This document shows positions 47,112-56,020 of a stretch of 64,000 nucleotides of DNA, piece by piece. Numbering within the stretch: the first letter of the stretch is position 1; each line of letters starts with the position of its first letter. The notes beneath the pieces were generated by a model. The model made no database searches, had not been told where the DNA came from, and worked only from the letters and a program-made list of their open reading frames with translations. Both the position numbers and the translations under genes were made by a program. The stretch comes from Acidobacteriota bacterium (GTDB lineage Bacteria > Acidobacteriota > JAAYUB01): contig JAKQOW010000018.1 in NCBI GenBank assembly GCA_029565065.1, positions 4,043 to 68,042 of the forward strand, read 5' to 3'.

Positions 47112-47948
47112 ATGGAGGATAGTCAGTCCACTCAGTTTTCCTGGGCCTATCTGACGGATACCGGAGTCAAGCGCACCTCAAACGAGGATGCGGCCATGGC
47201 CCTAGTGCTGAACCTGGACACTTATCGCGACCAGTCGTTCCTCGGCCTTTTCGTCGTTTCCGACGGCATGGGCGGCAAGGAGCGCGGGGAGTTAGCTAGC
47301 AAGATCGCCGTCAAGACAATCGGCGAGGTGTTTCTGAACAGCTTTATCCGGCCGTCGCTTCTGCGCGTGGCCGAAGTCGTCAATTACGGCAGCTTGTCCG
47401 AGGAATCGACCGGGGGGGTCGTCGTGTCGCCGGCCCAGTTTCTGGTGGAATCGATCCAGGAGGCAAACCGGCGGATCTGCCACGTCAAGCGCGGCGGCAA
47501 CCGGATCAACATCGGCGCGACCATCACCGTCGGGGTGGTCTCCGATGACCTGTTGACCATCGGGCACGTCGGCGACTGCCGCTGTTATCTGCACTACGAC
47601 AACAATTTCCGCCAGCTCACCCGGGACCACAGCATGGTCAATGAGCTGGTCAAACAGGGGATCATCTCCCCGGAGGAGGGAAAGGCCCACCCCCAGCGCA
47701 ACGTGCTGGCCCGCGCCCTGGGCAGCAGCGATGTCGTGGAGGTGGACACCTATGTCTCCGTCATCAGCAGCGGCTGCAAGATCCTGCTCTGCACCGACGG
47801 ACTATACACCATGCTGTCCGAAGACAGCATCCAGGCCGTGATGGCCCAACCGAAACATCCGAAAGAACTGGTGCAGGAACTCGTCGCCCGCACGAACGAT
47901 GCCGGAGCCAAGGACAACGTGACGGCGATGGTGATCCAAATCCTCTGA
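47112..47948 (+). CDS. PP2C-family Ser/Thr protein phosphatase
   Basis: YLTDTGVKRTSNEDA...FVVSDGMGGKERGELAS...GATITVGVV...LLCTDGL = PPM motifs 1, 2, 5, 8 with metal-binding Asp residues. Confidence 0.8.
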   Translation: MEDSQSTQFSWAYLTDTGVKRTSNEDAAMALVLNLDTYRDQSFLGLFVVSDGMGGKERGELASKIAVKTIGEVFLNSFIRPSLLRVAEVVNYGSLSEESTGGVVVSPAQFLVESIQEANRRICHVKRGGNRINIGATITVGVVSDDLLTIGHVGDCRCYLHYDNNFRQLTRDHSMVNELVKQGIISPEEGKAHPQRNVLARALGSSDVVEVDTYVSVISSGCKILLCTDGLYTMLSEDSIQAVMAQPKHPKELVQELVARTNDAGAKDNVTAMVIQIL

Positions 47949-47979
47949 ACGCATTCGATCATCCCAATTAGGAGGGACC

Positions 47980-48321
47980 ATGGACAAGAGCGATCCGAAA
48001 CTTTCCGCCTTCCGTGCCGGCGACATGCGCCGGGGCAAGCCGGCCCGCGATTCCGGACCCGGTCGTGACGCCGCCGATCTCCGCCATTATCCGTTTCTGG
48101 AGAAGCTTCTGGAAGCGGACGAATCGACCATCGAGCAGTTCCAGACCGTCTGCCAGAACACCTGCCGGAACCTGGACACCTCCGTCGGCCGGCAGAGCGA
48201 CCCCGCGTATACCGCGATGGGCCAGGCAGCCCTGTCGGCCTACGGCCACAGCCTGAAGCTGTTGGCCGAACTGTTGGAGATCAAATACGAACAACTCCGC
48301 CAGCAGGCGGAGAAGAAGTAG
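47980..48321 (+). CDS. hypothetical small helical protein (113 aa), first of a small-protein/TPR/sigma trio
   Basis: ORF with AGGAGG RBS; no recognisable domain; predicted helical C-terminus. Confidence 0.4.
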   Translation: MDKSDPKLSAFRAGDMRRGKPARDSGPGRDAADLRHYPFLEKLLEADESTIEQFQTVCQNTCRNLDTSVGRQSDPAYTAMGQAALSAYGHSLKLLAELLEIKYEQLRQQAEKK

Positions 48322-48330
48322 GAGGGCGCC

Positions 48331-53460: not shown

Positions 53461-54884
53461 ACCGCAGGGTGCCGATTACCGTCCGGATCCTGTTCTGCGC
53501 CGCCCTGCTGGCAGTGGCTATTCCGCTTGTCATGGCCGCCAGCGAGCATGAGATCAAAGGGGATGCGGCATTCGCCGCCGCCGACTACAAAAAGGCCGTC
53601 AAGGAGTTCAAAAAAGCCGTCGGGCAATTCCCTAACCAAGCCGGCCTCCACTACAAGCTCGCGCAGGCTTATTTCAAGAAAGGTGAGGCCGGCGAGGCCA
53701 TGGTCGAATTCATCCGCACCACCAACCTCGACCCGAACCACGACGGCGCGTATCAGTACATCGGTGATTTCTTCTTCACGAAGGGCGAGATGGACAAGGC
53801 CGTCAGAGCCTATGAAAACCTGGTCCGGATCAATCCCGAAAGCGCTCGTTATCACTACCTGCTGGGCAAGACGTACGACCGGATGATGCGCAACGAGGAG
53901 GCCCTGCAACACCTCTACAAGACCGTCCTGCTGAATCCGGCCATCGAAGACGCCTACCCCCTGTTGTTCAAGATTCTGAAGGTGAAGGTGCTGCAGGACC
54001 CGGGCAACACCGACAGCCGCATGATCCTCGGGCGGGTCTACAAGCTGCATGGCGATCTCGAAGACGCGAAAAACCAGTTCGCCGTTGCGGTGCAGATGCA
54101 GCCGGGCGCCCGGGACACGTGGGAGGAACTGCTGGCGGTGTGTCGTTCACTCAAGGATTGCAAGTGCGAGATCGCGGCGCTGGAGGGGTTGCTGAGCCTC
54201 AGCGCGGACAGGCTGACCCTCATCGACCAGATCCTGGAGCCGGCCCGGCGATGTGAGTTGCGCGAAACTCTCATCCGGTATCTGGAGCAGAAAATCGCCC
54301 TGGCGCCGGACCATGGCGCCAGCTACGCCGAACTGGGCCGGTTGTTCCAGCAAGAGGACAACCGGATCCAAGCGTACTTCTATTTCCGGAAATACACCGA
54401 GATCTGCCGCGGATGCCCCGATTACGAAGAGCTCCACAAGTGGTGCGCCAACGAGGAGTTGGCCAATCCGCTGGTGGACGCCCAGTACCGTTCGTTCAAT
54501 CTCTTCCAAACCGGGGTTGCCCGGTTCAAAGACGGCCGTTTCCCAGAGGCGTTGCGTCTCTTCGACGAAGCCGAATCCATCTACCCATCCTATCCCCAGC
54601 TGCATTTCTTCCGTGGCCAGGTGCTCGAGGAACTGAACCGGCGGGGCGAGGCGTTATATGCCTACAAGGAGGCGATCAAGATCCAGCCGGCCAACGCCGA
54701 ATACTGGTTTTTCCTGGGCAAGGCACTGGACGCCGAGCGCATGCGGGAGCAGGCGGCTGTCTGTTTCATCAAAGTGCTGGAGGTGGATTCGGACAACCTC
54801 TTTGGCTACCATGCGCAATCGCGAAAGCTGTTGCAATCCTATAAGGATCAAGGGATAATTAAGCCTTCGCCGATTCTGGATTAG
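53457..54884 (+). CDS. secreted/periplasmic TPR-repeat protein (475 aa)
   Basis: Signal peptide MNRRVPITVRILFCAALLAVAIPLVMAASEHE; multiple TPR units (AAADYKKAVKEFKKAV..., LAQAYFKKGEAGEAM..., YLLGKTYDRMMRNEEAL...). ATGA overlap with the preceding gene. Confidence 0.65.
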   Translation: MNRRVPITVRILFCAALLAVAIPLVMAASEHEIKGDAAFAAADYKKAVKEFKKAVGQFPNQAGLHYKLAQAYFKKGEAGEAMVEFIRTTNLDPNHDGAYQYIGDFFFTKGEMDKAVRAYENLVRINPESARYHYLLGKTYDRMMRNEEALQHLYKTVLLNPAIEDAYPLLFKILKVKVLQDPGNTDSRMILGRVYKLHGDLEDAKNQFAVAVQMQPGARDTWEELLAVCRSLKDCKCEIAALEGLLSLSADRLTLIDQILEPARRCELRETLIRYLEQKIALAPDHGASYAELGRLFQQEDNRIQAYFYFRKYTEICRGCPDYEELHKWCANEELANPLVDAQYRSFNLFQTGVARFKDGRFPEALRLFDEAESIYPSYPQLHFFRGQVLEELNRRGEALYAYKEAIKIQPANAEYWFFLGKALDAERMREQAAVCFIKVLEVDSDNLFGYHAQSRKLLQSYKDQGIIKPSPILD

Positions 54885-54898
54885 AGGGTCCGCCGACC

Positions 54899-56020
54899 AT
54901 GATTCACCTGGTAGTGGGCGCCAAGGGCATCGAAGAGGAGCGGGAGCTGTCCTTCGACCAGAATATCGTCAAGATCGGGCGGCTGAAAGAGAACGACCTG
55001 CCCCTTCCGGCAGCCAACGTGTCGCGCGTCCACTGCATCATCACGTTCGAAAACGGCGAGTACTACATTTCAGACTCCAGCTCCAACGGCACCTTGCTCA
55101 ACGGTGAAATCGTGGGGCGCAACCGCCGGCTGCCTCTGCGTCACGGCGACCGCATCGAAATCGGGGATTTTCTGATCCGTTTCGTGATCCAGGATGCCCA
55201 CGAAGAGTTCGAGAAGACCACCGATTTTCTCCAGGCCAAGTTTGCGGAGCTGCTGGTCCAACCCAAAGCCGAGACCCGCATCCCTTACCTGCTCATCGTG
55301 GGCGGTCCCACCAACGGCACCCGCGTGGAGCTTCTGGACGAGACGGGCGAAACTCTCATGGGGCGCACCCCGGACTGCCCGGTCCAGATTCCCTCACCGA
55401 CCGTCTCCAAGCATCACGCCCGGATCATCCGGCGCGGGGCGATCATCGAAGTCGAGGACTTGGGCAGCTCCAACGGCACCTGCGTGAACGGCCAGCCGGT
55501 CCAGGGTATCCAGCCGATCCAGGACCGCGACGAGATCATCCTGGGACAGCAGGGCATCGCCGATCCCATCAAGATCGTGCTGTCGATCCCCGTCCCGCTG
55601 ACCGAACAGGAGCCCGGAATCCCGCCGGCGGCGCCGCCCGTTGCGCCGCCGAAGGCCGAGACCGGTGCGGAAGCGCCATCCACGGTGATGGATCCCAAGA
55701 TGGCCGCACCGGCTGCCGCCCCGCCGTCTCCGGAGACCGCCAAGTCTGACGCCCCCGCCGCCGCCCCGCCGACGGCACCCGAGCCGCCACCCGTCCCGCC
55801 ACCCGCGCCGGAGCCCCCGCCGCCCGCGCCGCCGCCACCCACCGTCAAAGGCGCCGGGCCCGAACCCAAGGCGGCCGCCGAATCCAAGTCGTCCGCCCCC
55901 AAGGCCCCTCCGCCTGAAGAGGTTAAGACCGGCATGGGCGCGCTGGAATGGATCATCATCGGCGTCGGCGTGCTGGCCGTGATCGCCGTCGTCGCGGTTC
56001 TGGTGATCTATCTGGTGTGA
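54899..56020 (+). CDS. double-FHA protein with long Pro/Ala-rich linker and C-terminal tail-anchor TM (373 aa)
   Basis: FHA1 (GR..S.RVHCIITFENGEYYISDSSSNGTLLNGE) and FHA2 (GRTPDCPVQIPSPTVSKHHARII...DLGSSNGTCVNGQ); PAAPPVAPP...PPPAPEPPPPAPPPP linker; C-terminal TM WIIIGVGVLAVIAVVAVLVIYLV. Confidence 0.7.
   Translation: MIHLVVGAKGIEEERELSFDQNIVKIGRLKENDLPLPAANVSRVHCIITFENGEYYISDSSSNGTLLNGEIVGRNRRLPLRHGDRIEIGDFLIRFVIQDAHEEFEKTTDFLQAKFAELLVQPKAETRIPYLLIVGGPTNGTRVELLDETGETLMGRTPDCPVQIPSPTVSKHHARIIRRGAIIEVEDLGSSNGTCVNGQPVQGIQPIQDRDEIILGQQGIADPIKIVLSIPVPLTEQEPGIPPAAPPVAPPKAETGAEAPSTVMDPKMAAPAAAPPSPETAKSDAPAAAPPTAPEPPPVPPPAPEPPPPAPPPPTVKGAGPEPKAAAESKSSAPKAPPPEEVKTGMGALEWIIIGVGVLAVIAVVAVLVIYLV

Follow-up and report, generated by a model that had tools for sequence, protein, structure and literature searches.

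A rare acidobacterial operon best described as a reduced derivative of needle-less type III secretion clusters

Within a 64-kb stretch of an Acidobacteriota genome (64,000 nucleotides of contig JAKQOW010000018.1; hereafter, the window), nine packed genes on the plus strand, designated g1 to g9, occupy positions 47112–56020. A first-pass annotation of the sequence had regarded them as an atypical mix belonging to no system that it recognised. Our comparison replaces that view: g2 to g6 match a block of genes in complete needle-less type III secretion system (T3SS) clusters, and because of this homology the operon is best described, on sequence grounds, as a reduced derivative of the kind of cluster that encodes the Myxococcus-type needle-less system (T3SS*). 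Described in this way, it has kept a sigma factor, a pair formed by a TPR and a small protein, a FliG-like adaptor and SctL; SctJ, SctN–Q and the export gate have been lost, at least from the locus; and membrane proteins with FHA domains, a periplasmic TPR protein and a PP2C phosphatase have been acquired or retained. Literature searches turned up no account of this operon.

Relation to needle-less T3SS clusters

In a search with g6, the SctL/FliH-type protein of the operon, members of the in-group are at least 49% identical and the next relatives drop to 34–41%, several of them named by NCBI as SctL of Myxococcota or Deltaproteobacteria. The contigs of these 34–41% relatives (loci L014, L016, L017, L015 and L006 in our numbering) carry complete non-flagellar T3SS clusters, with the order sigma factor, small open reading frame (ORF), sctJ, a protein of about 330 residues, sctL, sctN, sctO, sctP, sctQ, fliO and sctR/S/T/U in L014, and with sctV close by in L015 and L017. 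The fetched stretches of the five loci showed no secretin, and L015 has a weak needle-like match. L014–L017 are likened here to the T3SS* of Myxococcus xanthus by gene content, not by phylogeny. The M. xanthus cluster encodes SctD, J, I, Q, RSTUV, N and L together with several LcrH-like chaperones (PMC10433427), and this needle-less system is regarded as an early-branching intermediate on the way from flagellum to injectisome (PMC3459982).

Five consecutive operon genes find counterparts in L014, with hidden Markov model (HMM) E-values of 1.9e-7 (g2), 7e-28 (g3), 1e-58 (g4), 6e-29 (g5) and 5e-50 (g6). The g2 homologue, at 5661–5990 on the minus strand, is also recovered by blastp (7e-5), small TPR proteins matching g3 recur in L015 (1e-18 and 6e-16), and g4 shares 32–38% identity with the sigma factors encoded next to sctJ in L014, L015 and L017 (1e-58 to 3e-45), being closest, among the relatives fetched, to the sigma factors of non-flagellar T3SS clusters. 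In all five clusters a FliG homologue lies just upstream of sctL (Table 1): Pfam FliG_C is recognised in three, and the g5 HMM matches every one (E 1e-32 to 4e-7), including proteins without a Pfam match in the slot between sctJ and sctL of L017 (1.6e-9) and L015 (3.8e-7). That slot, which follows sctJ in L014–L017, is occupied by sctK in injectisomes and by fliG in flagella. Myxo non-flagellar T3SSs have been reported to lack FliG (Abby & Rocha 2012, PMC3459982), and a FliG-like role has been hypothesised for SctK (PMC4045390); a FliG homologue in the sctK slot may link FliG to the SctK position.

Like T3SS* (PMC3459982, PMC10433427, PMC10849154), the operon encodes SctL, LcrH-like TPR chaperones and FHA-bearing inner-membrane components, and with L014–L017 and L006 it also shares an adjacent sigma-28-like sigma factor, a FliG homologue upstream of sctL and a g2-like small protein. 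Unlike T3SS*, it has nine genes rather than a cluster of about 30, is without SctJ, SctN, SctO, SctP, SctQ and SctRSTUV locally, and adds a PP2C phosphatase, a large protein made of FHA, transmembrane and TPR parts, and a periplasmic TPR protein.

Further features of the out-group clusters were recorded. Adjoining sctV in L015 (17561–18622, minus strand) is a gene for a protein of 353 residues with two degenerate FHA-like domains and a C-terminal tail anchor, which is the architecture of g9. The SctQ-like proteins of L014 (14559–15932) and L016 (7637–9007) carry a FliM N-domain and a near-canonical FHA domain (GR...SREH...N) ahead of the SpoA/FliN-like part, and in these clusters a separate 91-residue SctQ-C gene follows the FHA-bearing SctQ; the presence of FHA in SctQ suggests that the sorting platform itself could be under phosphothreonine control. 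At the edge of the L014 cluster (1–3174) lies a protein of more than 1091 residues with a Hanks-type kinase domain. On a 4.8-Mb contig of another organism (L029, 9197–11846), an L015-type cluster has the sigma gene, sctJ and a 328-residue FliG-slot gene, then an aminotransferase gene and no sctL; T3SS* clusters have evidently been rearranged in other lineages too.

The FliG-like and SctL proteins

Domain calls were made with Pfam, at its gathering score (GA), and with NCBIfam, at its curated cut-offs; transmembrane and signal calls were made by hydropathy. Pfam places g5 in FliG_C (40.7 bits, GA 23.3) and MgtE_N (36.8 bits, GA 25.9), and FliG_M and FliG_N score 17.3 and 15.6 bits (GA 25). An AlphaFold2 model of g5 (predicted local distance difference test, pLDDT, 77; predicted template-modelling score, pTM, 0.71) was compared with the PDB by Foldseek, and the 13 best matches are all FliG proteins, aligned over the full length; their global template-modelling scores are low (0.2–0.3), which is to be expected when three domains are joined by flexible linkers. 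Neither Pfam nor Foldseek gave a match between g5 and SctK. A g5 profile found no PDB sequence at E ≤ 0.01 and marginal FliG matches at E of about 0.01–0.03. In a low-confidence alignment, EIHP(A/S)W of g5 pairs with EHPQ(R) of T. maritima FliG, a FliM-binding motif, and the charged positions of the FliG torque helix align to non-equivalent residues. The homology of g5 to FliG is drawn from Pfam and the fold search, and g5 is a remote FliG homologue rather than an orthodox FliG. Its family is rare, with 14 clusters in 5.8 billion proteins.

For g6, which exceeds the GA of both FliH and T3SS_SCTL in Pfam, the score against the NCBIfam SctL model TIGR02499 is 74.4 bits, just below the cut-off of 78.7. 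Its AlphaFold2 model (pLDDT 82) consists of a long helix and a C-terminal alpha/beta domain, and matches best the FliH chain of the FliH–FliI complex (5b0o) in the PDB, then subunit E of the V-ATPase peripheral stalk. The C-terminal motif RGGCIIDTEIGTIDARLETQL is conserved in g6 to the same degree as in the SctL proteins of SctN-carrying clusters, in which it is invariant or nearly so.

The other operon proteins

The first gene encodes a phosphatase of the PP2C/PPM Ser/Thr family, also above GA for Pfam PP2C and at 215.9 bits slightly below the cut-off of 230 of the NCBIfam Stp1/IreP model (NF033484). The catalytic and metal-binding motifs RTSNED, SDGMGG, GDCR, TDGL and DN can all be read in its translation, and its ratio of non-synonymous to synonymous substitution rates (dN/dS) is 0.06–0.09. 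The small protein g2 is 55–92% identical across all lineages (dN/dS 0.07–0.09) and has no match in Pfam or NCBIfam and nothing meaningful in a PDB profile search up to E = 10. Its family is tiny, with 12 matching representative clusters in 1.84 billion proteins; two matches are giant proteins (P0258 and P0265, of 3071 and 3405 residues) in which the central helical part of g2 is matched repeatedly, over 16 and 5 stretches, respectively. We consider g2 a candidate partner of the TPR protein or of the sigma factor. The TPR protein g3 resembles class II T3SS chaperones in fold and size and gives weak matches below cut-off to LcrH_SycD (37 bits; TIGR02552 cut-off 104.8), CdsG (31.7) and SctY (28.4); with these scores, and with no translocator genes present, it falls short of assignment to the LcrH/SycD class. 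The best NCBIfam match of the sigma factor g4 is the FliA_WhiG model TIGR02479, at 147 bits under a cut-off of 189.6.

The largest protein, g7, has two degenerate FHA domains in its predicted cytoplasmic part, one transmembrane segment (residues ~276–299) and a TPR-rich part of about 470 residues that would lie in the periplasm. In both FHA domains the phosphothreonine-binding Arg, Ser and Asn are substituted in most orthologues (G-S/N, A/D-x-R-H), so that g7 lacks the residues of a canonical phosphothreonine-binding FHA domain; such non-canonical residues are established for the FHA domains of the SctD family, whose partner binding is independent of phosphorylation (PMC4045390). It is the least conserved gene of the operon, with 37–47% identity in distant lineages and a dN/dS of 0.19–0.20. 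The following gene, g8, begins with a hydrophobic stretch (residues 4–31) that ends in VMA/AS by hydropathy, overlaps the g7 stop codon by ATGA, and is 55–64% identical in distant lineages.

Set beside the injectisome sorting platform SctD(FHA)–SctK–SctQ–SctL–SctN, the operon offers g7 with the plan of SctD, g5 in the SctK slot and g6 as SctL; unlike that platform, it is without SctQ and SctN, and its g5 is a recognisable homologue of FliG and not a match to SctK. Also unlike SctD, g7 has two FHA domains, and its periplasmic part is built of TPRs, not of ring-building motifs; with 24.9 bits against a cut-off of 86 for TIGR02500, it is not an SctD by family assignment. The closest known systems are T3SS* clusters by descent and the SctD–SctK–(SctQ)–SctL part of the sorting platform by architecture.

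The last gene, g9, encodes two FHA domains of the canonical kind and a C-terminal transmembrane segment (344–373) preceded by a Pro/Ala-rich linker of about 115 residues (40 P and 25 A in 115). In eight orthologues, G27 R28, S42 R43 and N63 G64 of the first domain and G155 R156, S170/H172-H173 and N192 G193 of the second are invariant, so that the phosphothreonine-binding signature (GR, S(R/K)xH, NG(T/S)) is intact in both. An EKTTD motif between the two domains (T107, T108) is likewise invariant in the eight orthologues and is a possible phosphorylation site, judging by its sequence; it resembles ETTS, the site of self-recognition in GarA/OdhI. A Ser/Thr kinase of the Hanks type, with repeated double-zinc-ribbon motifs, lies directly after g9 in L009 (11837–13459) and L025 (from 7202) only, and the 64-kb window holds no homologue of it. 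Assignments of g7 and g9 to T6SS TagH, GltG of gliding, OdhI/GarA or EspA were rejected, since these matches are due to the FHA domain alone; g9 comes close to the cut-off of the TagH model (117.7 against 120.25 bits) by virtue of its FHA domains only.

The association of a PP2C phosphatase and canonical FHA proteins with parts derived from a secretion system has parallels in PpkA/PppA/Fha1(TagH) of the type VI secretion system (T6SS) and in PknD/CdsD of Chlamydia, and the double FHA of the operon proteins is presumably as in CdsD. Unlike those systems, the window contains no T6SS genes, the kinase lies outside the operon in most lineages and the FHA proteins of the operon are anchored in the membrane by single helices.

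Organization and conservation of the operon

The nine ORFs lie exactly where the first-pass annotation had put them, and all show a coding signature, with a GC content of 0.74–0.84 at third and 0.35–0.49 at second codon positions in a sequence of 64% GC. From g1 to g9 they are separated by 31, 9, 7, 12, 13 and 10 nt, a 4-nt ATGA overlap (53457–53460) and 14 nt, and GGAGG/GAGG motifs resembling Shine–Dalgarno sequences precede most starts. This bears out the plus-strand series with small gaps and overlaps described earlier, to which the 31-nt gap between g1 and g2 is added. The proposal that the genes form one unit is supported by their identical order in related loci, by a single sigma-70-type −10 box conserved 5′ of g1 in every lineage and by a terminator scan that found no credible internal terminator within the operon. 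The PP2C, sigma-28-family, FliG-like, FliH/SctL-like, FHA and TPR identities, also proposed at that stage, are all upheld by Pfam and NCBIfam, and the FliG and FliH folds by the AlphaFold models and PDB fold matches.

A −10 box similar to TATAAT, frequently preceded by TG, occurs at the same relative position 5′ of g1 in seven divergent orthologous loci, and a putative promoter was placed there (Table 1) by phylogenetic footprinting; it scores under the threshold of a simple sigma-70 scan. Searches with PADLOC defence-system models gave only weak, generic PP2C, sigma and TPR matches among the operon proteins.

Table 1 Coordinates of the operon features and of FliG homologues in related clusters
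Feature	Coordinates	Strand	Length (aa)	Assignment and basis
Putative operon promoter	47035–47063	+		TTTCCA, 17-nt spacer, TG-n-TAGTAT (extended −10); 48 nt 5′ of g1 ATG
g1	47112–47948	+	278	PP2C-type Ser/Thr phosphatase, cytoplasmic; Pfam PP2C_2 53.4 bits (GA 24)
g2	47980–48321	+	113	Small protein, disordered basic N-terminus, helical C-terminus; no family match
g3	48331–48735	+	134	All-TPR protein resembling class II (LcrH/SycD-type) T3SS chaperones; TPR_19, TPR_14, TPR_2 above GA
g4	48743–49459	+	238	Sigma-28-like (FliA/WhiG-related) alternative sigma factor; Sigma70_r2, Sigma70_r4 above GA
g5	49472–50458	+	328	FliG homologue, GTG start, in gene slot held by sctK in injectisomes; Pfam FliG_C
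g6	50472–51125	+	217	SctL/FliH stator-type protein; Pfam FliH 88 bits, T3SS_SCTL 32.7 bits, both above GA
g7	51136–53460	+	774	Bitopic membrane protein, SctD-like architecture; Yop-YscD_cpl 70 bits, FHA 68 bits, TPR_16, TPR_19
g8	53457–54884	+	475	TPR protein, N-terminal signal peptide or anchor; several TPR families above GA
g9	54899–56020	+	373	Tail-anchored protein with two canonical FHA domains; FHA 134 bits, two domains
FliG homologue upstream of sctL, L014	8928–9950			g5 HMM
FliG homologue upstream of sctL, L016	1776–2798			g5 HMM
FliG homologue upstream of sctL, L006	699–1682			g5 HMM
FliG homologue upstream of sctL, L017	4769–5755			g5 HMM
FliG homologue upstream of sctL, L015	8938–9906			g5 HMM

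Among 185,579 GTDB representative genomes, a g5-like gene is present in four species, all of them metagenome-assembled genomes of Acidobacteriota (JAXGLX01, which includes the 5.0-Mb contig JAXGLX010000002.1, JAGOHA01, CAYPNP01 and JAFGRT01), at least two of which come from an anaerobic digester and an anaerobic membrane bioreactor, to judge by isolate name; nine JGI/ENA metagenome loci also carry one, and the JGI contigs Ga0208196_1000001 and Ga0209164_1000077 are among the operon carriers. The nine-gene order is identical in 14 complete loci, and so in every locus long enough to show it, and nine partial loci are consistent with it; together, they represent at least eight lineages. The operon always lies downstream of panB, panC and a DUF2520 gene. 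What follows the operon varies: the window and its closest relatives have a helix-hairpin-helix (HHH) protein and nuo there, and other lineages have an ion channel or the Hanks kinase. The operon proteins of the window share 37–65% identity with those of the most distant complete loci, which is the same range as for the flanking PanB (58–68%), PanC (66–69%) and DUF2520 (44–47%) proteins, and pairwise dN/dS against two closer relatives is 0.05–0.22 for all nine genes. The conserved order, the identity range matching that of the neighbours and the low dN/dS therefore indicate that the operon is old, vertically inherited and under purifying selection, and not a decaying relic.

Surroundings in the window

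Of the parts that characterise a non-flagellar T3SS, the locus has SctL; the export gate, SctN and SctJ are not found there. In tblastn searches with SctJ, N, O, P, Q, R, S, T, U and V queries from the related clusters, which included SctR, S, T and U of L014 and SctV of L015, neither the 64-kb window nor any acidobacterial locus gave a match; the related loci were covered up to 10 kb on each side of the match. The window also holds no FliF, FliI, FliM/N, FlhA/B, FliPQR, rod, hook, filament or MotAB gene, and Pfam searches of 30 further window genes found no flagellar, T3SS or T6SS gene, all being housekeeping. The first-pass annotation had noted an absence of core genes within 10 kb; the Pfam and tblastn results widen this to 47 kb upstream and 8 kb downstream. 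With the export gate, ATPase and rings absent locally, the operon does not qualify as a T3SS or as a flagellum.

The flanks were correctly given earlier as panBC and nuo: panB, panC and the DUF2520 gene lie upstream, and a convergent gene for an HHH protein, followed by nuoA–D, lies downstream. The convergent gene (56027–57529, minus strand) encodes a 500-residue protein whose only match is HHH_5, and its stop codon is 6 bp from that of g9. It was rejected as an operon member, as it is present in L001–L003 but does not follow g9 in L004, L009 and other loci. Other neighbours are groEL, a bacillithiol cluster, rml, uvrD, nifS/nifU, mreBCD-pbp2-rodA and a gene pair for an extracytoplasmic function (ECF) sigma factor and its anti-sigma factor. 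The three adjacent genes at 4206–7946 (minus strand), for a GT4 glycosyltransferase, a PIG-L deacetylase and BshC, look like the bacillithiol cluster bshA/bshB/bshC. The only low-GC stretch of the window (38078–40825, minus strand; 0.547 against about 0.64), just downstream of mreB-mreC-(mreD)-pbp2-rodA on the same strand, encodes a GGDEF diguanylate cyclase and a FecR-domain protein. At 42543–43810 (plus strand), an ECF-type sigma gene or fragment (Sigma70_r2) is followed by a zf-HC2 anti-sigma gene; this pair is conserved in L001 and precedes the nitroreductase and panBC genes. Scans for Rfam families and tRNAs gave no matches in the window.

Discussion

The reading of the operon that we favour, and to which we give about half of our confidence, is that it encodes a T3SS*-derived, membrane-anchored platform that is switched by phosphothreonine, possibly controls its own sigma factor, and signals or scaffolds without secreting. 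In such a platform, g7 and g8 would form the inner-membrane and periplasmic part, g5 would dock on the cytoplasmic FHA domains of g7 by analogy to SctK on SctD, and g6 would bind g5. The threonine phosphorylation state would recruit or release g9, with the mark written by the Hanks kinase, adjacent in one sub-lineage and located elsewhere in the others, and erased by g1. The output would be how much of the sigma factor g4 is available, with g2 and g3 holding or releasing it in the manner of FlgM and sigma-28 or of the circuits of TPR chaperones and activators in T3SSs, and the module as a whole would be a signalling or scaffolding device rather than a conduit for secretion. The first-pass annotation had suggested a module regulated by Ser/Thr phosphorylation that reuses FliG and FliH folds. 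The regulatory part of that suggestion is still the most plausible reading, in view of the FHA residues of g9, the motifs of g1 and the kinase of L009 and L025; the idea of folds reused independently of a known kind of system does not hold.

Several observations weigh against this reading. The fold shared by SctL, FliH and subunit E has no known role other than that of a stalk holding a RecA-type ATPase, and the conserved RGGCIIDTEIGTIDARLETQL block of g6 suggests, as far as sequence can, that an ATPase partner is still present somewhere. Neither strict nor loose patterns of the sigma-28 promoter type TAAA-N15-GCCGATAA found a site in the 64-kb window, and no similarity of g2 to FlgM or other anti-sigma factors was detected in Pfam, NCBIfam or the PDB profile search. 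The topology of g7 and g8 was assigned by hydropathy, the loss of the export core is established at the level of the locus, and the interactions, the phosphorylation and the sigma output are all predictions from the genes themselves.

The most serious rival, which we find somewhat doubtful, is a split secretion system, in which the operon would be the regulatory and sorting-platform half and the membrane core and ATPase, of a T3SS or of flagellar export, would be encoded at distant loci; by analogy to PpkA/PppA/Fha1 of T6SS and PknD/CdsD of Chlamydia, the FHA proteins and PP2C would gate assembly post-translationally. Scattered T3SS loci have a precedent in Chlamydiales (PMC3459982), and the idea would account for a g6 whose ATPase-binding C-terminal domain is strongly conserved, at residues invariant across SctN-containing clusters, and whose best fold match was solved with its ATPase partner FliI, as well as for the EHP motif kept in g5 and homologous, in the low-confidence alignment, to the FliM-binding EHPQR of FliG. 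The gene order of the relatives speaks differently: sctL is directly upstream of sctN in every examined out-group cluster that has both (L006, L014, L016 and L017), and sctJ precedes the FliG-like gene in L014–L017, whereas in all acidobacterial lineages the sctL–sctN block is replaced by the series sigma factor, FliG-like protein, SctL and FHA protein. Two lighter points lie on the same side, namely that among the 120 of 177 SctJ/FliF proteins listed in an SctJ profile search none comes from a contig matching in length any of six large acidobacterial ones (5,003,342, 1,175,370, 515,234, 304,896, 202,071 and 192,573 bp), and that the g6 search showed no second SctL/FliH on the large acidobacterial contigs.

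A place in flagellar biology is much less probable. Flagella are present in some Acidobacteria (PMC3459982), and g4 could be the FliA of the organism, with the FliG and FliH paralogues acting as a clutch, a brake or an export regulator under Ser/Thr phosphorylation; the best NCBIfam match of g4 is indeed FliA/WhiG, g5 and g6 match the FliG_C and FliH families of Pfam, and a flagellar fliF-fliG-fliH-fliI locus with FliA/FlgM has in common with the operon a FliG fold, a FliH fold, a sigma-28-type sigma factor and a small upstream protein that might be an anti-sigma factor. Unlike such a locus, the window has no fliF, fliI, fliM/N, export-gate, rod, hook, filament or mot genes, and unlike flagellar regulation, g4 stays under the FliA cut-off (147 against 189.6 bits), g2 is not similar to FlgM and the sigma-28 promoter consensus is absent from the window. 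Moreover, the closest fetched relatives of g4 are sigma factors of non-flagellar T3SSs, the named proteins most closely related to g6 are SctL and not FliH, and the g5 profile misses solved FliG structures at E ≤ 0.01, with torque-helix charges that are apparently not conserved in the low-confidence alignment. That the genes are the functionless leftovers of a lost T3SS would fit the local absence of core secretion genes, and an earlier annotation of M. xanthus T3SS* loci treated them as relics (PMC3459982). Against this, all nine ORFs are intact in every lineage, their order and spacing persist down to about 40–50% identity, dN/dS is 0.05–0.22, divergence equals that of the flanking panB and panC genes and the promoter is conserved; the selection and synteny data effectively refute decay.

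The evolution of machines by loss and co-option has a textbook example in type III systems, in which the flagellum, the needle-less T3SS* and the injectisome are successive stages. The operon would add a further step, in which the regulatory and cytoplasmic parts are under strong selection and the channel and motor genes are gone from the locus. The boldest form of the platform reading, which we put forward tentatively and think rather unlikely, is that a FliG-derived adaptor, the SctL stator and an SctD-like membrane scaffold were exapted to build a phosphothreonine signalling device that spans the envelope, works independently of secretion and controls a dedicated sigma-28-like factor. It depends on the absence of the core from the whole genome, where absence from the locus is what is established here; were it true, these would be the first T3SS sorting-platform components to work with neither an export gate nor a T3SS ATPase in the genome, SctL and the FliG-type adaptor must then have a job other than export, and our understanding of both would change. 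The family also bears on the origin of SctK, as the gene in the sctK slot of its complete relatives is still recognisably a FliG, and the canonical FHA domains, the PP2C phosphatase and the sometimes adjacent Hanks kinase point to a long history of phosphothreonine control in this branch of T3SSs. Rare and ancient as it is, the operon is clearly functional and is relevant to the evolution of the cytoplasmic parts of type III secretion systems.

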